Notes: generated by a model not told the origin, from the sequence alone. A stretch of 11,136 bases of DNA from Armatimonadota bacterium (GCA_043814095.1 JBDRKI010000106.1:1-11136); one strand, 5' to 3'. Positions 2 through 11,136 are shown, counted from the first letter of the stretch. Numbers and translations are program-made.

Positions 2-3000
2 GGATTCAAAACCAGAGACATTAATATATTATTAACCGCGCTGGGCCAAGTTAGAGATGATATATCTAAAAAATCAGGGACAGCGACAGTAAAACAAGAC
101 ACAGAACCCCAAAAAATAACGGAACCAACGCAAGCAGTACCTGAAAAAATTGAAATAAAGCCTTTATCAGATGATAAATTTATATCTTTACTGCAAAATG
201 AATATTCAGAAGCAGTTAAACCCTCCCTATGGGCAAGCAGGTTAATTAATCACCTGCTGGTTTCCACAGAGAACTTCTGTCCTAAAGATTTTACCGGCAC
301 AACCGGCTTTACAAGAAAAAATACTCTATCACGCTGGGATAAATTAACCAGCATGATAGAGACAGAGTTTGAATCCGTTATAATGGCAAGCGGGAAACCT
401 GCAATTGAAATGGTTAATAAATACATTACCCTCTTAGACCTGTTTCTAAAGCATGATATAAAAGATGCCGGGGGAAAGAAGATTACAAACCTTATAGACG
501 CATACGCGTACCTTCTTAAAAACCAGGTTGTTTCAGAGACGGATGAACCTTTAGATTTAAGCTGGGGCAAAGATCTCTTTGAATATCATAATACCGACCA
601 CAAAGGATTCTTCAAGTTTCTTGAATATGAAGAACTTGTAAGATTCAGAGACCATCTTAAAGCGGAAAATGATGCTAAAAAATTAAAGAAAGATAAAAAA
701 GCATTTGACAGGGTAAAAAAAGCTTCTTCTTTATTCACTGTGACACATAGAGGCCCTGACACAAGCTCGCCTTCTATATGGAAAAAAACCGCAAAATCAA
801 ACACAAACGGGACAATAACACCGCCCGGGCAGTCAAAAAATTATCCTCCAATAACAGTCCGCCCCGGCGTACTGCCCCATGAGCGCAAGGGATATCCTGC
901 TGCCGGGGGAAGGGCAAAAATACCCTCTACGGGAAGAAAACAGGATCACATAATAGTATTACGGGCGCTTAATGCAAACAAAACCCGCAAAGAAGCCGCC
1001 GGGAAACTTGAAAAATCCGATGTTTATGTATCCGACATATGCAGGGAAATAAGGGAACTGCAGTACGGTGCATCTGAAATATTAACAGAATATGAAAACA
1101 GCACAGGATTAAAGGTTGCGAAAATACTGGAGCTTTGCAAAGATTTAACCTCAAAAAAAGGCATAACAGAAAAAGATCTGCTTGAAGCCATAATAACGAC
1201 AAATTCCTTCAAAGAAGCCGCGGTCCATTTAAACATTAATGATAAGGTGTTTTTAAGAAGGATTAAAAACCTCCGTGAAAAACTGGAACAAGACCCGGTA
1301 AATGCCGGATATATGGCCGGACAGCTTGCCGGAACCCCTGCAGAAGCAAAATTTTATGAAAAATTCAAAAGAAAGCTTCGGCCCTCTGATATTGTAAAAC
1401 TATGCGCCACCAGAACTGATAATAAAACCGTAAAACAAGCAAAACTTATATATGACCTTATGCTGACCAAAAACAGAAATAAAGCGTGCAAATTATCGAG
1501 CCTGCAGGAAGCGGATTTCAATAAAAATATCCGCAAGATCAAAGCTTTAAATGATACAGACCTGCAGCTTCTGGCAGACTCATTAAATAAAAATCATCCC
1601 GAAATAAAAGAAAACCTGAAAAGACCCGCTGAAGCGAAAGACATTAAAGATATTCTTGATTACATAGATTTAAAAGACTCCGCGGATTTAGCGGAAGCTA
1701 TACTTCTTAAAAAATTTACGGGTGATAGCTCCAAACTTAAAAGAATAAACAGAAACACGCTCATAAGAAGAAAAGAAAAGTTTTCTGGGCTGTCCGCAGA
1801 AGATCTTCAGAAAATAGCCGGCATTATAAACAAATTTTACCCGCACATAAAAGAAGCGGCCGGCAGAGATATAACCGTTTCGGATATAAAAACGCTTGAT
1901 GCTCCCCGGGAAAAAGCGCCCGCAATAAAAGAAGAAAAAACCGCGGACACAGAGAAAAATATCCCGGCCACTGATACCGGAACAGCTCCCGGCATCCTAA
2001 CGGTTTTTTCAAAAAGTGAATTATGTCTGTTGGAATATTTAATAAACAACGCGGATACCATCCCTGTCGAAGGTTTCCGGGAATATTTAAAACACAGTTC
2101 AGAATACTTTAATGTTGCTGATACGGATAATCTTTTAAAGAACTTTAATGAAGCGGTTAAAACTCCGGAAAGCGTTAAATTCTTTGCCGGCAAACTTAAG
2201 GTTCCTGAATCCGGTATTCTCGAACTAAAAAAGAAATTACTGGCTGTTGAGAACACCTCAAAGCCTTCTGGGAAAACAAAGCCGGAAATAATTTTCAATG
2301 AAAAAGAACAGACATTTATAAAAGATTTAACTTCAAAAGATAACCTTAAAATCATATTAAACAGGCATAACCTATCGCTTAAAGACGTTGAAAAAATATT
2401 CGGTAAATCCCAGCAGGCCGCTTTAGAAGATATAGCGTTAGCAACGCAAGTTCTTGAAATAGAGAACCTGCTGAAACTCTTCCAGAAAAGACGGGCGGAA
2501 TTAAAACTCATACAAAGACAGAGTAAAAACGGATTTAAAGCTTCTCAGGGCGGCCTGCCGCCCTCCCCTCCTCAGGATTATAGAAACGGCGGCAACGGAT
2601 ATAGAGAAAGAAACTCCCGGATACTTCCTTTAAACGGCAAAGAATCCGGCAACTTAACCAACGGATCAATGATTGACTCCTTCAATAATGTCAGAAGCAA
2701 AGCCCCCGGACAGGATAAAGACATATCAACAGAAACCCGTGATCCGCTTAACCCCGGAGGGCCTAAACCGGCAGGGCTTAAATGGTGGGATGGATTCAAA
2801 AAGCAACATATGCCGGGCTTATATAAATCAGGCATATTATTCCAGGCATTAAGCGATGTGGATTTAAGCATTGTTCTGAGGGAACATGAAATTTCTTCAG
2901 TAGTTAATCAGATATACCGTGAATCGGGATATGAAAAAGCTTTGGAATTTTACAGAAAGCTTATTGAAATAAATAATGAAAAGGAATCCTTTACTAAAGA

Positions 3001-6000
3001 AGAATTAGATTCTGCAAAACCTTATCTTGCTACAATGGCTGTTAACGGTATAATCAAAAAATACGGATTCTACGGACAATTTGCCATAGACAATCCGGTA
3101 AAGTCCATTGCAGCCACTTACAAGGATTTTAATTATCCAATTTTTGATGTGTTAAATACCTTGGAAAAATATGATCAATTCTTTATTGATTTATTTAAAG
3201 CATTAAAAGAGATTGACCCTGCTTTTGTTGATGCGTTCAAAAAAACTTTTAATCCTGAAGATATAAATCAGGCAAAACGGGCTAAAACCATATTGATTGT
3301 AAATGAAGCATTGAGAACTTACGGTTGTAAAAAACATGACAAGCTGGCACACTGCCTGCCCAAAGAAGGCGCCGCATTATATCTAAGAAACCGAATACTT
3401 GATAGCCCTAAAACTTTTAATTTAAATAAAGATAATTATATTTCTTTCTTTACGGAAATAATTGAGAATTTAGGAAAAATTGATCCCGCGCTTGCGCTGG
3501 AATTTTCCGAAGGGCTCTGCTCGGGGCCTGAAGATCCTAAATATATAGTAATATCCTGCAGTAAAAATGAGATAAGATCTCCCTTTGCTGAATATATAGC
3601 TAATAAGATAATTTCCCGGAATGATAATTATAAAGATTATACAGTCGTATCCGCGGGGATAGATGCGCGGGAGGGAGCACCAAACTACTTTATCGTGGCA
3701 GATAAAACAACAGACGAACCCATAGACAGCAAGAAAAAAACAAGAGCCCTTAGCCCTGAGTTAGTAGAAAAAGCTGATATAGCATTCATTGTTCCCGAAC
3801 ATTACCAAGAAGCAGTGGAGAGATATCCCGGACACGCTGATAAGATACTGCCCATGGAACTGCCTCTGACAGTATTTACGGTGCATGAAGGCACAGTAGA
3901 GCTTTACCGTGAAATCATATTCGGGCATATAGAAATGCTCGCGAACTTGAAAAAAGCATTAAGAGGCTATTCTGCCGGACCTCAGGGTGGAACTAAAAAA
4001 ATAATACCCGGCTCATTAGTTGACGCGCATAAAGCAGAAAGAAAAGGCTTTGAAAATACTCAAAGACATGAAAGACAACCTGAAAACGGCAGCACAAGCA
4101 GTCATGACTCCAAAGGCCTGCAGACACCTTCACCCGGAGGCAGCCCTGTATATTTCGAATTTGGAGAAACTTTTATATTTAATCAATTAAGAGAGTCCGT
4201 AACACCGGATACGCTGGAGCTATATATAAGACAACAGGTAAAAGACCCTGATGCGTTTGCCCAAAAAATCAACACATTAACTCAAACAGACGAAGCTTTA
4301 AATAAATTTGCTAAAGAGCATGGGCTTGAAGTAGAAAAAATTGAGTTATTAAAAAGCACACTATCTTCAACGCAAAGCGCAACAGCTTTAACGCGCGATG
4401 AATCAATGCTTCTCAAATCATTAGGCAATCGACGGGTTATGCGATGGGACAAAATCATAAAAAATGCATCTATAGACCCCATGGCTCTGCGGGATAAAGT
4501 TGATAAACTTACCGAAACGACCGATGATAAACGCAGTTTTGCCAAAAAGTATTCTATTTCATTCGGGGAAGTAGACAGTTTAAATCGTGTATTATCCGAA
4601 ATCGTGCAGAAAACAGTTCTAAATAAAAATGAGGAAGCCGTAGTAAACAGACTAAAAAATACTTCCATGGAAGAATGGAAAGACATTATAATAAATTCTG
4701 AAGTTCACCTCGGAAATTTTGCAAAAAAAATAGATACCGTAAGCGCTTTCGATACTGCTAAACAATCTTTCCTTGAAGAATTCAGCTTTACAGAAAGAGG
4801 ACTGACACGCCTGAAAAATATAACATATGAGCTTCAAAAATCAAAACACCTCTCAGAAAGCCAGAAAAACTTACTTTCCCTTTTGAAAATTTCAGATATA
4901 AAAAAGTGGGAAGAGATATTAAATAATGAGATGAAACATGGAACTAAGGACTTAGCAGGTCTTAAATATAAAATCGATGTTTTAACCCGGAATGAAGCCG
5001 GCAGAGCAAAATTCACTAAAGATCATGGTATTGAAAAAATTGATGAATTAAAGAATTCGCTGAATAAAGTTTTAAACGAACAAAACTCACCTAAAACAGA
5101 AATAGAAGAAGGCGGTATTGGTGCAAAAGAATCAGAATCTAACCGCCACAGTAAAATGCCTAATATAAGACCCAACATGCCCCCGCACGCGAAACTGCAT
5201 CAGCGGAGGCCGGAATTAAAAGATACCTCAGCGGCAGTCAAATCAGGAAAAACCATAATGCTGGCTAAGGGTAAAAGCATAACCCTAACGGCGGCGGAAG
5301 AATCAATAATCGCCCTGCGGGGAGATAAAAACCGCAAAACAGCCGTAAAAAAATCCGTACTGGCTTTGAATATAGATGCCGTATCTTTCTTTGAAAAAAT
5401 AGATAAAGCAATCTGGCATGAAGCTTTTACGGCATTTAAAAAAGCCTACGGGCTTAGCGATATAAACCTTGCTGATCTGCATCATATACTAAGAGAATTA
5501 GACGAAGAAATAAAAGTACTGCAAAAACTGAATCAATTAAGAGACAGAAAAGACCGTATAATATCTATCTCAAACAAATTAAAATGGACGATAAAGAAAA
5601 CGGATCAAGCCTATAATAGAGCGCACAGGTATTTCAGAATCAAAGTTTTATCGGAACAAGAACTGGAATCTCTTGCCAAACAAGCAGGATATGAAAATGC
5701 CAAAGACCTGACGGAAGCCGTTAAAGCAAATAGTCCCCCTCCGAATTTAAATGAAAAAGCATTTGAAGCAGGTCTAACAATTACTGTGGGAGATTCAAAA
5801 AAATTCTACGGCTCTATAAGCAATATTATGACAAATATATTAAAACAGGACTTAAACGGGGATATTGCCGGTGTTTTTGCCGCTAAACTAAGAGAATACA
5901 AAAATCCATCTTTTATGATCAACTCCTGCATCAATATATTAAGAGAGTTTAAAAATAAAGGGGTAAAAGACTGCAAAGGTCATGATATTGCCGATATCAT

Positions 6001-9000
6001 ATCCATATATAATTACATGGCTGAAAATAACCTTTTTAAAAAGCCTGCAGAAAATTTAAAAGGCAGTGAAGATGCTTTTAAATGCCTTAACCTTGAATTT
6101 TTTGAAACAATTAAAAAAGAATTTAAAAATGGAAATGGAAACGGAAACGGGGAAAGCGTTCCCGAACTGCTGAGCCCCGGGTTTTTTGAAAGAGTTAGAG
6201 AGGAAATAAAAGATCCGGATATCGGAAGAACTGAAGATTTATACGGGAAAGACTGGTTTGAGATAGCTGATACGCTGCACGAGCGCACAGAGAAAGCTAA
6301 AGCTAAAACCAAAGCTAAGGAAAGCACGCGGGTAAAACCAAGCGAAAAAACAGCTTACATTGACGGCATACCGATGTCGGGTAAAGCCCCTAAAATAGAA
6401 GCAGGGAGTGTCGGCGCGCCCGAGATAAATAACAATCACTCCAAAATGCCTGTAGTAAGGCCTGAGTTTCCGCCGCACGCAAAACTGCACCGTATAACAG
6501 GCGCTATTGATTCCTTAACCCGCAAACTTTTCCCTGATTATTATACAGAGATGAAAATTAATAAAGCGGCTGAAAAGGCGGGAGTAAAAATATCCGGCGA
6601 AAATGATAATCCGGCATCGGAGCTGGAAACCGTATGCAATAATTACGGATGGGATAAAACTCTCAAACTTTACAAGCATATCCTTGAACTTCATAATAAA
6701 GAAAATATATTTAATCAGGATGAGATGCTTGCCGCAAAAAACATTATGCTGAATAAATTAGCGGTAATAGGCGGGATTGAAAAACAGAATATTGACGCAA
6801 AAATAAAGAAAGCTCTGGTTCAATCAATCCGGAACGCTAAATGCGCTACCCCGGAAGATACGGCCGTTTATACAAGGGAAGCTGTTTTAAGAACAAGCTT
6901 AAAAATAGATTGTATTAAGCTTCTTAATGATACCGTTAAGAATTTAGAAAAAATTGATATTAATTATGCCAATAAATTTAGTGCCGGAGCCGCCGGAAAA
7001 CCTGTTGTCAGTATATTACATGTATGCGAACTCCATCAGGTCCGCAGCACCGCGGCGGAATATTTTACAAACCTGCTTCTTTTTGAAAAATACGGAGACA
7101 GATTTACGGTTGAATCCGCCGGCACAAACGCGATAGACGGCCAGCCAACCGCGTTTCTGGTTGATATCGAAGGGATTTCCAGCGGATTAACCGGTATTTC
7201 TAGAAAACTAACCCCTGAGATGATTGAAAAAGCGGATGTCGTCTTCGCGGCAGTCGGCACTGAAGGAACCATAAAGAAAATTATTGAGGAAGCGGAACTG
7301 CCTGAACATCATTATATGAAGATTACAACAGGTTTCTTCCCGCGTTCGATTCAGAAAAAAGAAAATTTCATGCCCATGGTAGAGTATATAGAGGCAAGAG
7401 AGAAAATAAGGAAGGCTTTCGGCGGAAACCTGCCGGTGCCCCCCTCCCCCTGTCCCGGAGAACCGTCCGTTACAAAAGGTTCGGCAATAGACCAGTTTGG
7501 GATGCGGAAAGAGAAGGCAAATCCCGCTACCAAAGAACACAACCGGCTTGGCAGCGCGGTCAAGCCGGAAAAACATGACCGGGCAGAAATACACTGGGGA
7601 GAACTGCATAAAAAAGTTATGCCGGGACATTATTACAGTAAAAAAACCAATGTTAATCTGGCTGCTAAAGAACTTGGTATAACACTGCATAACTCTGATA
7701 TACATAAATTCCCCTCCCTTAAAGTCTATTTTGACAAAATATTTGAAACCATCAATGAAAGACACGGCTGGGATAAAGCCGTAGCCTTTTACAATAAACT
7801 CCTTCAGATAAATACGGAAAAAGGCGGTAAGGTTCTCTCTTCTGAAGATATTAATGAAGCTCAGCTGTTTTTAACAAGAATAGCTGTTAAAAATTCGGCA
7901 AAAGCTAACTCTCTGGAATTATTCTTAATGGATAAATTCACAGTAGAGGCAACTGCAGTTAATTTCAGAGAAGCAGTTCTTTTAAACGTTCTACCTGTTC
8001 AACTTGTTAAAAACTATAACTACATCCAGATATTCAGCAATACCGTACGTGAACTTGAAAAGCTGAATACTGCATTAGCATTTAAATTTAAAACAGCCCT
8101 TGGAGGCGGATACCTTGAAAACATCCTTTTTGTATGTGAACAAAACAAACTAAGGAGCCAGGGAGCGGAATTTTTAGTAAATATGATGTTGGATAAAAAA
8201 TACGGACGCAGGTTCTCGGTTAAATCTGCAGGGACTCGCGCATATGAGGGAGCTGAGACTGCTTGTATGGTGCAGATACAGGGAGAAACTAAATGTAGAA
8301 AAAGTACTACAAAAAAACTTACTCCTGCTCTTATTAAGAACGCTCATATGGTCTTTGTAACTCCGGAAAATTATAAAGTTGTATTTGATATGGTAACAGA
8401 ACTTATAAAAGAAGGAAAACTTGAAGAAAAAGATCTGCAGAAAATCAATAAAAAACTGTTCCCGCCGGGTGCAGGCATGTTATATAATGAAGGCGATTTT
8501 TCATTAATAGTACTATATATAGAGGCAAGAGATACCGTACATAAAGTATTCGGAGCAGATCCTATAAAAGAAGGCGGTATCGGGATAGAAGAACCCTGCT
8601 CTGACCGGCACAGCAAAATGCCTCAAATAAGACCTGAATGGCCTCCTTCCGCAAAAATGCATCACAGCCTTATACAGAAGCTGGGTCATGACAGATATCT
8701 GATAGGAAAACTTGCATTCCGGGATAATGAAATAAATTTCATTAAAGCCCTTAAAGATAATCCATCCTCTAAAATACCATCAATTGCCGGAAGACATAAA
8801 ATAGCGCAACCTTTAACTGTGCTGGTCAGGTTTAATACCCTGTACTATGAAGCAAAAGTTGAGGCAGCCGAGTTCCTGGGATTTGAAAGCTTGAACCAGT
8901 TTCAAAATACCATAACTAATGGTATGCGTGAATTAGGAGCAACCGGCCGGGGTAAATCCAAACCCGGGATAAAAGACGCATTCAAAGCCGGCACTTCCTT

Positions 9001-11134
9001 CCCTGAGAAAGAATTAATCTTAGCATCGGGAGAAAAAATAACTTTTACGGGAGCAGAAGGAAAACTTTTTAATTCCAAGTTTAATCCCAATAACAAAATA
9101 ATGCTAAAAAGAGATATCCTTGATCTGGGTATAAATGGAGTGGAGCTTTTTGAAAAAATAAAAGCCGTGGGAGCTTCGGCAAATGATATTCTCATGCTCA
9201 AAAATATGTATCCCAACCTTAAAGGAAAAAGGTACAGCGACTTATACACAATATTAAAAGAACTCAGCGAAGAAATAATAACATTACGGGAGCTGAGATT
9301 TTTAAAACCCGACCGCGAACGGTTAACAATCCTGGCAAAAAGATTAGGTATGCCTAAAAAATATTCTGATAATATTTACTATAATGCTAAAAAGCTTGTT
9401 GATTCCATGGATGAAAGCCAGAGGGCAAGCTTCGCAAAAATAATAGAAGTCGATAGCGCGGAAAAGCTCACAGAATTAACAAGTCCCGCCAATCAGACTC
9501 AAAAGATAAACAGGAAAGCAAAAGAGCTGGGATTAAACATCAATTCAACTGATTCAAAATACATATATATGGGTCTTGAATCGATAATATCCGATATCCT
9601 GAACGGCATCAAGCCTTCCATGGACAGCAAGCAAATATCCGAGTTTGCCATAACCAGGTTTGAAAAAAGCATTAAAAAATATGACAACCCGTTTACCCCT
9701 CTTAAAACATGCATCAAAGTCTTAAAAGAATTTAAAACTAACCCGAAAAAGCTTTCCTGCGGAAAACCCGTTACAACCATAGTAGATGTATATAATTATA
9801 TGCTGGAAAATGATCTGTTTGACGCTCAAGTTAAAATGAAAATTGAATTAAACGAATACGAAGAACATTTTAACTTCCTTACCCTTGAATTCTTTGAAAA
9901 GTTTATTAAAGATCTAGAAAATAACATGTCTAACGGAAACCTAAACATAGACATAAAAGAAGAATATGACAAAATAGAGCAGGAACTTCTCGAGATATGC
10001 AACGAACTCTATGAACCTCTTGTCATAACTCTATTTAACGCGCAAACTAAAAGAGGTATAACCATAACCGGGCCCGCCAAAGAAAAAATAAAGCAAAACG
10101 CAAAAGATATGATTTTAAAGCCCGATATGCCGAAATTATCGCTTGATTCTGCAAGAACATTAAACTTAAATGCTCATTATGTGGAAACATTACTCAACCA
10201 TATCGATCTTATAAAAGATAATTTTCCGGATAAAGCGCAAAAATTAATCGGAAAATTAAACACTCTGCAAAATTCAATATACGGCTTTAACCTGCACAGG
10301 CAGGGAGAACTTGACATACAGAAACAGCTGAAAATCAATTCCGATAATATCGAAGGACTGCCGGTTGAGAGGGCAGGTAAAAAATATCATGGAAAGTTCC
10401 CCGCCCCTATCCGGCCTGAAGTATTAGGCAATGAGAGGGCTAATTTAAGTTCGAAAAAGACAGCCGGATCAAAAAAACAAGCCGCTGAGCCTAAAACTAC
10501 TCAAAGAATATATTTTACAGAAAAAGAAAAAGAAATACTCCGCTCCCCTATTAACACTGCCCAGAAAACAAGAATAAAACAGGATATCCTTGATGCGAGG
10601 CTGGATCCTATAGAATTCGCATGGAAAGTAAAGAATAAAGTTGATAATCCGGCAAAAAGAGCAAACTTTAAAAGAGATTACGGGCTTAATAATAGAAACT
10701 GTGACGATTTAGTTAATATACTGGAAGAATTTGAAGCCGAAATAACCATTTTAAGAACCATAAGGGAGATACAGCTTGATAAAACAATAAAAGATAAAAG
10801 AAATTATTTAAGGTGGGTCGCGCTTAGATTATTATGGGACCACGATTACATCAAGAAAACCCTTGATCACAGCATAAAATACTACTTTAAGAAGTTGACT
10901 CCCAAACAACAGGAAAGACTGGCGGAAATAACAGGATTTGGAAACGCTGTAGCGCTCAAGAATACTCTTTATCCTCAGGAAAGTAAAATAGAAAAAAGGG
11001 TTGAGGAAAAACTAAGCAAAACAAAGGAAACTTCTGTACCCTTAACCCGGGGCGGGACAAGCGCTATAGTTGACAGATCAGCCGTTGAGAGAGCGGGCAA
11101 AAAACATCGCGGGCAGTTTCCTGTTCCAACAACA
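2..11134 (+). CDS. Giant multi-module protein, internal fragment (>3711 aa, open at both ends), containing 3 LMW-PTP-like domains, HTH-like repeats and repeated helical modules
   Basis: Manual translation of frame +2 (GFKTRDINILLTALG...VERAGKKHRGQFPVPTT) shows no TAA/TAG/TGA across the window. The strand is A-rich with natural K/E/I/N-rich composition. Recognisable domains and internal protein repeats all fall in this frame. Confidence 0.96.
410..661 (+). repeat. Diverged copy of module Q C-terminal subdomain
   Basis: MVNKYITLLDLFLKHDIKDAGGKKITNLIDAYAYLLKNQVV...FKFLEYEE vs MINSCINILREFKNKGVKDCKGHDIADIISIYNYMAENNLF...FKCLNLEF. Confidence 0.6.
956..1897 (+). repeat. Four tandem ~75-90 aa HTH-like units
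   Basis: VLRALNANKTRKEAAGKLEKSDVYVSDICREIREL (956); LLEAIITTNSFKEAAVHLNINDKVFLRRIKNLREKL (1178, LysR/ModE-HTH-like); LIYDLMLTKNRNKACKLSSLQEADFNKNIRKIKAL (1445); LAEAILLKK...KRINRNTLIRRKEKF (1688, Fis-like INRNTL). Units 3 and 4 share tails (LNDTDLQLLADSLNKNHPEIKE / LSAEDLQKIAGIINKFYPHIKE). Confidence 0.6.
3539..3961 (+). other. LMW-PTP/ArsC-fold phosphatase-like domain 1
   Basis: KYIVISCSKNEIRSPFAEY (CX5RS at 3557-3580), YTVVSAGI, TRALSPELVEKADIAFIV. These match, in order and spacing, the LMWPc hallmarks ILFVCxGNxCRSPxAE, VxSAG and RxLxxxxxxxADLI. Confidence 0.85.
4148..5080 (+). repeat. Four tandem ~77-aa helical protein repeats
   Basis: Anchor hydrophobic residues at 4154, 4388, 4619 and 4850 (spacing 234/231/231 bp). 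Shared pattern LxxxExxhhxxL...WxxIh...K(I/V)Dxh...FxxxxG/S...LK. Similarity is at protein level, not exact DNA. Confidence 0.75.
5102..5200 (+). repeat. Inter-module linker motif, strong copy 1
   Basis: IEEGGIGAKESESNRHSKMPNIRPNMPPHAKLH. Confidence 0.9.
5249..6127 (+). repeat. Unknown ~300-aa helical module Q, copy 1
   Basis: Aligns end to end with 9008-9925: IMLAKGKSITLTAAE/LILASGEKITFTGAE; FFEKI/LFEKI; DLHHILRELDEEI/DLYTILKELSEEI; CINILREFK/CIKVLKEFK; IYNYMAENNLF/VYNYMLENDLF; LNLEFFE/LTLEFFE. Confidence 0.85.
6127..6150 (+). repeat. Hexamer microrepeat (aaaYgg)x4 encoding NGNGNGNG
   Basis: aaatgg aaatgg aaacgg aaacgg read directly. Confidence 0.8.
6395..6490 (+). repeat. Inter-module linker motif, strong copy 2
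   Basis: IEAGSVGAPEINNNHSKMPVVRPEFPPHAKLH. Confidence 0.9.
7010..7423 (+). other. LMW-PTP/ArsC-fold phosphatase-like domain 2
   Basis: SILHVCELHQVRSTAAEY (CX5RS at 7025-7048), FTVESAGT, SRKLTPEMIEKADVVFA. Confidence 0.85.
8120..8554 (+). other. LMW-PTP/ArsC-fold phosphatase-like domain 3
   Basis: NILFVCEQNKLRSQGAEF (CX5RS at 8135-8158), FSVKSAGT, TKKLTPALIKNAHMVFV. Clear paralogue of domain 2 (KYGDRFTVESAGT vs KYGRRFSVKSAGT; YIEAR in both; identical 17-mer tatatagaggcaagaga at 7385 and 8516). Confidence 0.87.
8564..8662 (+). repeat. Inter-module linker motif, strong copy 3
   Basis: IKEGGIGIEEPCSDRHSKMPQIRPEWPPSAKMH. Confidence 0.9.
9008..9925 (+). repeat. Unknown ~300-aa helical module Q, copy 2
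   Basis: Same alignment as for copy 1 (5249-6127). Confidence 0.85.
10349..10447 (+). repeat. Linker motif variant (VERAGKK type), copy 1
   Basis: IEGLPVERAGKKYHGKFPAPIRPEVLGNERANL; HGKFPAPIRPE parallels HSKMPxIRPE. Confidence 0.8.
10508..10975 (+). repeat. Module Q, N-terminal half only (copy 3)
   Basis: IYFTEKE...IKQDILD (vs LKRDILD)...FKRDYGL (vs FKKAYGL)...DLVNILEEFEAEITILR (vs DLYTILKELSEEIITLR)...LAEITGFGNA (vs LAKQAGYENA). Confidence 0.75.
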
Positions 11135-11136
11135 CC
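11060..11136 (+). repeat. Linker motif variant (VERAGKK type), copy 2, truncated by window end
   Basis: SAIVDRSAVERAGKKHRGQFPVPTT(P); matches VERAGKKYHGKFPAP at 10364. Confidence 0.8.

Follow-up and report, generated by a model that had tools for sequence, protein, structure and literature searches.

The window analysed here (11,136 bases) is an entire contig (C106) of an Armatimonadota genome and consists of a single frame running open from the first to the last base, the internal part of a giant open reading frame (ORF). Judged by their sequences, a set of proline/glycine-rich linker peptides between the cassettes of the encoded protein appears to form two small families, A and B, with three copies each including one on the upstream contig, rather than one motif in nine linkers. 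We consider it on balance probable that these linkers are a selected, probably disordered linear recognition peptide that is tied to one type of cassette, here termed Q. The upstream contig (C86), whose last 141 bases match the initial 141 bases of the window exactly, is likewise one frame of 4,900 aa with both ends open; joined, the two contigs encode one ORF that comprises at least 8,564 aa and is open on either side.

Three linkers, A1 to A3, belong to family A, the HSKMP core of which starts at nt 5147, 6437 and 8609. The motif coordinates given in a sequence-only reading of the window all proved exact on re-check. Its claim that the strong copies are more alike than the folded domains was borne out by self-BLAST, in which the A linker copies were 59-67% identical as compared with 23-35% for the domains (43% in one 51-aa patch). 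Over 33 aa the three A pairs share 53, 64 and 67% identity, whereas none of the 1,096 windows of this length in five paralogous domain alignments reaches 64% and six reach 53%. Pairwise Smith-Waterman comparisons resulted in z values of 15.5-18.6, with 0 of 1000 shuffles reaching the score. Furthermore, leave-one-out hidden Markov models (HMMs) recovered each A copy with independent E-values of 2.4e-9, 3.9e-5 and 1.2e-6, the best score elsewhere among the 23,196 genome ORFs of at least 40 aa being 9.2-11.4 bits. By these sequence measures family A is statistically robust, and the linker motif is kept better than even the phosphatase active-site region.

Family B comprises the copies B, B' and B0, which are also significantly similar to each other (pairwise z 7.6-10.6; 0 of 1000 shuffles). 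The peptide has a bipartite layout of 35-40 aa, in which a small-residue element, [IL]-x-x-G-G-[IT]-[GS]-[AI], is followed by 8-16 variable residues and then by a proline/basic core, H-[SG]-K-[MF]-P-x(1,2)-[IVT]-R-P-E ... [AE]-[KR]. Common to A and B are the core [MF]-P-x(1,2)-[IVT]-R-P-E and the upstream G-G-[IT]-[GS]. Proline and glycine account for about 20-26% of the motif segments; family A has an invariant PP dipeptide and family B an invariant P-x-P. The two families are probably related to each other; one of the nine A-B pairs is significant (A3-B, z 4.1, 4 of 1000 shuffles). The sequence-only reading had counted about nine related linkers. This count holds for the three A copies, for the copy at 10388 and for the one at the window end; at 857, 7538 and 4065 the similarity is marginal (z 2.4, 3.5 and 2.9; 6, 3 and 4 of 300 shuffles, each as the best of five comparisons), and the variant at 2747 was ruled out as a copy of the motif (z 0.3, 107 of 300 shuffles). 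HMM scoring had a similarly divided outcome, in that the A copies were significant and the copy at 10388, when left out of the HMM, scored 9.6 bits and fell below the genome background.

Along the ORF the elements are arranged as B0-Q0-(857 variant) ... 77-aa array-A1-Q1-A2-PTP2-(7538 variant)-PTP3-A3-insert-Q2-B-Q3N-B', where PTP denotes cassettes with a low-molecular-weight (LMW) phosphotyrosine phosphatase domain. Among the genome ORFs the motif HMM matches only the ORF of C86 and the window, and a profile of Q1 and Q2 matches only the window, at aa 121-197, 1736-2115, 2987-3440 and 3501-3660. Each of the six robust copies adjoins a Q cassette; the downstream neighbour is known for five of them, and in four of these cases a Q cassette follows. 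Q1 and Q2, which are the closest pair, are both preceded by type A, while Q0 and Q3N are preceded by type B. Since the motif type tracks the relatedness of the Q cassettes, the simplest history is a duplication of motif and Q as one unit. The earlier observation that similar copies flank different cassette types therefore mostly reflects co-duplication.

The claim that the motif lies between every cassette could not be maintained. A heuristic for P/G-rich linkers flagged 31 segments in the ORF of C86 and the window, four of which hold a robust copy (A1 and B' were not flagged by it). None of the histidine-kinase borders in C86 holds a robust copy, and according to pattern and HMM scans the other giant ORFs of the genome (C90, C30, C32, C61, C63 and C78) are without the motif. 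The robust copies do sit at domain borders, which were drawn from self-BLAST and the cassette alignments, but only at those of Q cassettes, so that a motif at unit junctions, the arrangement typical of polyprotein sites, is present at the Q-cassette borders and not across the ORF. Enrichment counts used patterns written after the copies had been seen and show only the absence of the motif elsewhere, not independent support.

The conservation of the motif was examined by comparing paralogues within the one genome. According to the Nei-Gojobori method the proportion of synonymous differences (pS) is 0.46-0.62 in the motif and 0.63-0.80 in the flanking domains, and the proportion of non-synonymous differences (pN) is 0.23-0.35 and 0.43-0.49, respectively. 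Where residues are identical, the codons agree at 30 of 57 sites in the motif versus 197 of 401 in the flanks; B and B' differ in the codon at 7 of 11 identical residues, and the A copies show 9-13 synonymous differences per 33 codons. Because the synonymous sites are equally scrambled, the motif appears to be conserved at the protein level, with copies about as old as the domains. This supports the view of the sequence-only reading that these are not neutral disordered linkers, the copies being old and having undergone fewer amino-acid changes than their flanks. Recent gene conversion, which that reading had named as an observation that would refute it, was looked for and not seen, the codon choice being as scrambled as in the flanks.

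Table 1. Features of the window and of the adjoining end of C86 (nucleotide positions refer to the window).
Feature	Position	Strand	Remarks
Internal fragment of giant ORF, 3,711 aa	2..11134	+	single frame, open at both ends
Cassette Q0, C-terminal part (aa 121-197 match Q profile)	362..592	+	N-terminal part and B0 in C86 aa 4751-4900
Marginal B-like copy VRPGVLPHERKGY	857..895	+	after Q0; same alignment position as A2, not significant alone
PTP1 cassette, helical N-domain and LMW-PTP with CX5RS	2651..3961	+	Pfam, cassette alignment
Other-family linker LNPGGPKPAGLK	2747..2782	+	DPLNPRPPG...MFP family, common to C90 and C63 giant ORFs
Marginal copy AHKAERKGF	4025..4051	+	linker after PTP1; z 2.9, 4/300, best of five
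Array of four 77-aa helical units	4151..5086	+	unit type also opens Q1, Q2 and Q3N
Motif A1, aa 1697-1735, PKTEIEEGGIGAKESESNRHSKMPNIRPNMPPHAKLHQR	5090..5206	+	between fourth 77-aa unit and Q1
Cassette Q1, aa 1736-2115	5207..6346	+	helical, matches no known family
Motif A2, aa 2127-2165	6380..6496	+	between Q1 and PTP2 cassette
PTP2 cassette	6509..7441	+	Pfam, cassette alignment
Marginal B-like copy HNRLGSAVKPEKHDRAEIH	7538..7594	+	between PTP2 and PTP3; versus B0 z 3.3, 11/1000
PTP3 cassette	7559..8560	+	Pfam, cassette alignment
Motif A3, aa 2851-2889	8552..8668	+	directly after PTP3 C-terminal helix; ~100-aa insert, then Q2
Cassette Q2, aa 2987-3440	8960..10321	+	Q profile, self-BLAST
Motif B, aa 3449-3483, NIEGLPVERAGKKYHGKFPAPIRPEVLGNERANLS	10346..10450	+	between Q2 and Q3N; HGKFPAPIRPEVLGNERANL core at 10388
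Cassette Q3N, aa 3501-3660	10502..10981	+	matches only N-terminal part of Q profile
Motif B', aa 3681-3711, LTRGGTSAIVDRSAVERAGKKHRGQFPVPTT	11042..11134	+	after Q3N, cut by contig end; truncated HRGQFPVPTT at 11105-11134
Motif B0	C86 aa 4772		third family B copy, precedes Q0

The motif and Q would have spread as one unit by internal duplication, and the motif would presumably have been kept as a short linear recognition motif (SLiM), an extended peptide that is bound by a protein partner. Consistent with such a motif, it is placed between folded domains in segments for which a low-quality AlphaFold2 (AF2) model predicts no structure, and among the paralogues it is conserved above its surroundings. 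The AF2 model of A1-Q1-A2, based on a paralogue alignment of five rows, is poor (mean pLDDT 52.8); its motif segments (residues 1-52 and 408-472) have pLDDT values below 50 and neither helix nor strand, which is weak evidence from a poor model. A fold search with the same model had a best Z of 5.5, a value in the range common for unrelated helical models.

Concerning the protein that would read the peptide, it is possible that it docks without cleavage or regulates the Q cassette. That it cuts the chain and frees Q-containing blocks by limited proteolysis is possible too, and we rate this only slightly lower. In the case of proteolysis the candidates would be an M16 clamshell module and the HExxH modules of the sister giant ORFs. 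The C90 ORF encodes a full M16 clamshell with two M16+M16_C halves and the sequence HFLEH (ORF aa ~2190-2975, minus strand); the 16 columns that are invariant in an alignment of 27 sequences are all preserved in it, H45, E48, H49 and E125 among them. The catalytic half is 28-33% identical to the subunits of the mitochondrial processing peptidase. HExxH sites in similar contexts were detected at the C90/C30 junction (one site, in the contig overlap), in C32 (two, ORF aa 4409 and 5444) and in C78 (three, ORF aa 892, 1297 and 1860). These six sites possibly belong to zinc-metalloprotease-like modules; one of them matches the Pfam family ATLF with 23.6 bits, below the cut-off of 27.4. Pfam scans (E <= 0.1 for the window; E <= 0.001 for C86, C90, C32, C61 and C30; E <= 0.01 for C63, C78 and the C90 5' ORF) revealed no protease module in the window or in C86. 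Processing is possible because protease modules occur in the sister giant ORFs, whose presence does not demonstrate cleavage. A complex prediction of the M16 module with A1, made without control runs, scored 0.00 versus a mark of 0.32 and is evidence neither way.

Several points weigh against a selected recognition peptide tied to Q. The low pLDDT of the motif may reflect the five-row alignment and not true disorder. A2 is an exception to the order of motif and Q as it is followed by the PTP2 cassette, and motif and Q core lie at varying distances, between about 8 and about 130 aa. At the sequence level A and B are weakly linked. The constraint is deduced from 3+3 paralogous copies of one genome, no orthologues having been found, and the pS of the motif, calculated from about 20 synonymous sites per pair and slightly lower than in the flanks, leaves some room for an older homogenisation. 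As to a proteolytic function, no contig link was found that joins the M16 module and the window, and the module may belong to another polypeptide.

Alternatively, the motif may be a structural element of Q, an N-terminal extension packing onto the cassette with a conservation that results from folding. Motif and Q do share exactly one distribution, with the motif preceding Q in four of the five determinable cases. However, a segment so rich in proline and glycine, with neither secondary structure nor confidence in the prediction (a weak argument), which lies at a variable distance from the Q core, is separated from it by a 100-aa insert after A3 and in the case of A2 has no Q downstream, seems unlikely to play this role. 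It is moreover conserved better than Q itself, which is unusual for a peripheral structural strand. A neutral relic or gene conversion, with linkers that are recent copies or have become homogenised as DNA, might account for the slightly lower pS of the motif and for the 14 of 15 nt that B0 and B' have in common over GGTSA. This explanation is very unlikely and is largely refuted by the synonymous divergence: the codon choice in the motif is no less random than in the flanks, the synonymous differences between the A copies are numerous and the longest common DNA stretches short, and non-synonymous change amounts to roughly half that of the flanks. Similarly, the invariant PP of family A, the P-x-P of family B and the position of the copies at domain borders might point to a role in translation, where prolines or rare codons slow the ribosome and aid co-translational folding. 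We regard such a role as extremely improbable, given that there is no rare-codon cluster and that the conservation spans about 20 non-proline residues which are not needed for pausing. A rare-codon pause was rejected on the basis that the motif windows lie at codon-adaptation percentiles 11-75 among all 40-codon windows. An internal translation start at the conserved Met was rejected as well, as no Shine-Dalgarno-like sequence is located upstream of the ATG of A1-A3 and family B has Phe instead.

The sequence-only reading had favoured a general polyprotein junction signal, one motif at every cassette border by which a protease, chaperone or secretion machine would handle each cassette as a separate effector. 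Besides the location of the robust copies at domain borders, the robust and marginal copies together delimit protein-sized blocks (Q0, a block of ~1,400 aa, Q1, PTP2-PTP3, Q2 and Q3N), protease modules are present in sister giant ORFs, and a preprint on other giant bacterial proteins proposes a processing by embedded peptidases (10.1101/2023.11.21.568195). Nevertheless, such a signal is improbable considering the small share of flagged linkers (4/31) with a robust copy, the histidine-kinase borders of C86 and the other giant ORFs that are without one, the assignment of the 2747 linker to another family and the marginal similarity at 857, 4065 and 7538. In addition, neither a segment resembling a transmembrane (TM) helix nor a recognised secretion domain was found in the giant ORFs. 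Equally improbable, in our estimate, is a true bacterial polyprotein, in which an M16 or HExxH module would read the G-G-[IT]-[GS]...R-P-E linker, cut it and release Q cassettes that open with leader-like 77-aa units.

The latter feature leads to a processing at a double glycine as in leaders of RiPPs (peptides made by the ribosome and modified after translation), with the 77-aa units as Nif11-like leaders and G-G/G-S as the cleavage site. GG or GS is present in five of the six robust copies (GG in A1, A3, B0 and B', GS in A2; B has GL), A1 directly follows a 77-aa unit, and one of the seven units has sub-threshold matches to Nif11 (PF07862, 17.0 bits, E 0.0072; TIGR03798, 17.9 bits, E 0.0028). 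These scores remain under the curated cut-offs (23.8 and 32.3 bits, respectively), and the other six units give nothing. According to PMC6363468, double-glycine leaders carry Gly-Gly, Gly-Ala or Gly-Ser at positions -2/-1, and on a helix their positions -4, -7 and -12 are hydrophobic and -8 is Glu. This pattern is absent here: positions -4/-7/-12 are E/T/Q in A1 and K/D/K in A3, position -8 is K and A, respectively, and in every copy position -5 is hydrophobic and a Pro falls within -6 to -9. Taking furthermore into account that the C39 peptidase (PF03412) had no match at E <= 0.01 in the 98.97% complete genome, while the same search was positive in 7 of 14 control genomes, a double-glycine processing seems highly unlikely.

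The 77-aa unit occurs seven times with the consensus ..T..E......L.N...K......I.....D...F..KID...........F.K.YGL.......L..IL.E, and its profile had no match below E 0.1 among the PDB sequences. A similarity of unit plus tail between the contexts of A1 and B0 is striking by eye and was rejected as not significant (z 0.1 and 0.0). The insert of about 100 aa between A3 and Q2 (nt 8669-8959, aa 2890-2986) is not matched by anything in front of Q1 or Q3N; on visual inspection it resembles a small helical domain of the helix-turn-helix type. The LMWPc family (PF01451) was detected in three stretches of the window with 72.1 bits (cut-off 23.2), and Pfam domains of this type also occur in C30, C63 (two) and C32. 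The C, R and S of the CX5R(S) loop are invariant in an alignment of nine PTP cassettes. The LMW-PTP domains are always fused to a helical N-domain of ~180 aa (GWEK...FY, LRE.IL, FF..I..LEK.D..LA.EF), and outside this genome the full cassette of both domains turned up in just two foreign proteins from metagenomes (P0005 and P0006).

The genome has a size of 2.5 Mb in 129 contigs, a GC content of 39% and a completeness of 99% (98.97%). Further pieces of giant ORFs are located on the contigs C90, C30, C32, C61, C63 and C78, the fragments in the genome amounting to ~26,000 aa in total. C90 (minus strand) is joined to C30 (plus strand) by a 141-nt overlap; a contig link from C90/C30 to C86 was looked for and none was found. 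Over 25,751 aa of giant-ORF sequence neither a TM-like segment nor a signal peptide was seen, and no recognised secretion domain came up when the window and the remaining giant pieces were scanned with Pfam. These scans did reveal histidine-kinase modules in C86 and C32 and HEAT repeats in C32.

C86 aa 1-366, the C63 5' ORF aa 1-285 and the C32 ORF aa 408-746 are 63-87% identical, and these paralogous stretches are far closer to each other than the cassettes of the window are. Either there are several giant genes or large internal duplications took place recently, which probably explains the break of the assembly at this place. Two public DNA runs from separate studies, one of a biofilm and one of a groundwater metagenome, contain short contigs of 150-244 nt that are identical to the window; their depth is low and they give no variants. 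One of the two may be the source sample. In the sequencing-run search no RNA run was listed as holding the window sequence.

At least five other conserved families of linker peptides recur in the giant ORFs (C86, C32, C63, C90, C61, C30 and C78, and nt 2747-2782 of the window). These include KKDKSGKPPSAPTATGTDKPAPHKVPERKMPA; DPLNPRPPG...MFP; GPKRRAWK.PD.EI..DPLFDGARG; DDITEP.DIN...GPFSLNKVMD followed by GLG..P.PVTPQGI.MPV; and SRPSDPT..ADKP.RPTPGGRDIAGKDYP. In a pair from C90 and C63 the linker motif aligns and the sequences on either side of it do not. It may be that these giant proteins have conserved linkers in general.

Relatives of the motif or of Q were detected neither in 40 relatives nor in 400 genomes of the phylum (including one unpublished genome, G245, on which no other result depends), where only ordinary LMW-PTP cores matched. 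A phmmer search with aa 1690-2889 of the window against 1.84 billion representatives resulted in five matches, three from the own genome and two foreign ones that contain the PTP cassette only. The linkers of these two proteins, P0005 and P0006, are not significantly similar to the motif, and P0006 searched against longer proteins yielded no relatives of motif or Q. No relatives were obtained with the motif alignment among the proteins of 77-2,000 aa in a collection of 5.8 billion or with a 1,200-aa piece in a collection of genome contigs, and a protein atlas look-up with A3 had no usable match. Two matches of pattern scans, L032 in genome contigs and L031 in metagenome contigs, were rejected as chance occurrences of xWPPSAK[L]H in unrelated high-GC sequence. 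Among the ORFs of at least 40 aa in this genome no stand-alone ORF has the motif, so that the alternative raised by the sequence-only reading, a fusion of formerly separate genes with a common leader peptide, finds no support in this genome.

Several known systems resemble the arrangement in part. MARTX toxins consist of unrelated cassettes with unstructured linkers; a cysteine protease domain (CPD) cleaves these linkers, and the cassettes are then handled as separate units. Their linkers are not known to carry a long conserved motif. In contrast to MARTX toxins, neither Peptidase_C80 (CPD) nor RTX repeats were listed by Pfam for the window or for the other giant pieces, and the motif is limited to one cassette type. 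Viral polyprotein junctions and the linkers of profilaggrin have a repeated short sequence at the unit borders whose conservation exceeds what a spacer would show, because a protease reads it. Such sites typically comprise 4-10 residues and are present at every junction, whereas here 35-40 residues are conserved, only the Q borders are concerned and cleavage is putative. With the double-glycine and Nif11 leaders the window shares a helical unit of ~75 aa, a G-G/G-S about 25-30 residues later and one weak Nif11 match; unlike in these leaders, the upstream recognition pattern and C39 are missing and the family cut-offs are not reached.

The giant multidomain proteins of the Omnitrophota are similar as very long ORFs that string together many enzyme domains, with HATPase_c and HEAT_2 among their common domains, as described in the preprint (10.1101/2023.11.21.568195). 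The same source (West-Roberts et al. 2023, 10.1101/2023.11.21.568195) proposes their cleavage on the basis of embedded peptidase domains, states that the cleavage points are unknown and names this lack as an obstacle. Unlike the giant ORFs studied here, which have no TM-like segment, no C39 and instead M16 and HExxH modules, those proteins contain numerous TM domains and C39/S8 peptidases (10.1101/2023.11.21.568195). No sequence relatives turned up in our searches.

For the question whether giant bacterial proteins act as a whole or are cut, six selected linker peptides at defined borders provide a concrete place to look. If the polyprotein reading were true, they would be the first processing sites of a giant bacterial protein to be defined by sequence; if they served as docking sites instead, the motif would mark the Q cassette, which matches no known family, as a specially handled unit. 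The case is limited in that it concerns an orphan from one uncultivated genome, and a conserved linear motif that duplicates with its cassette is of a familiar kind. For the preferred reading, a recognition peptide tied to Q, the closest counterparts are the SLiMs, which are short linear motifs in disordered interdomain linkers. The motif is longer than most of them, bipartite and an orphan known from a single genome; it resembles them as a proline-rich segment without predicted structure that is more conserved than both the surrounding linker and the domains.

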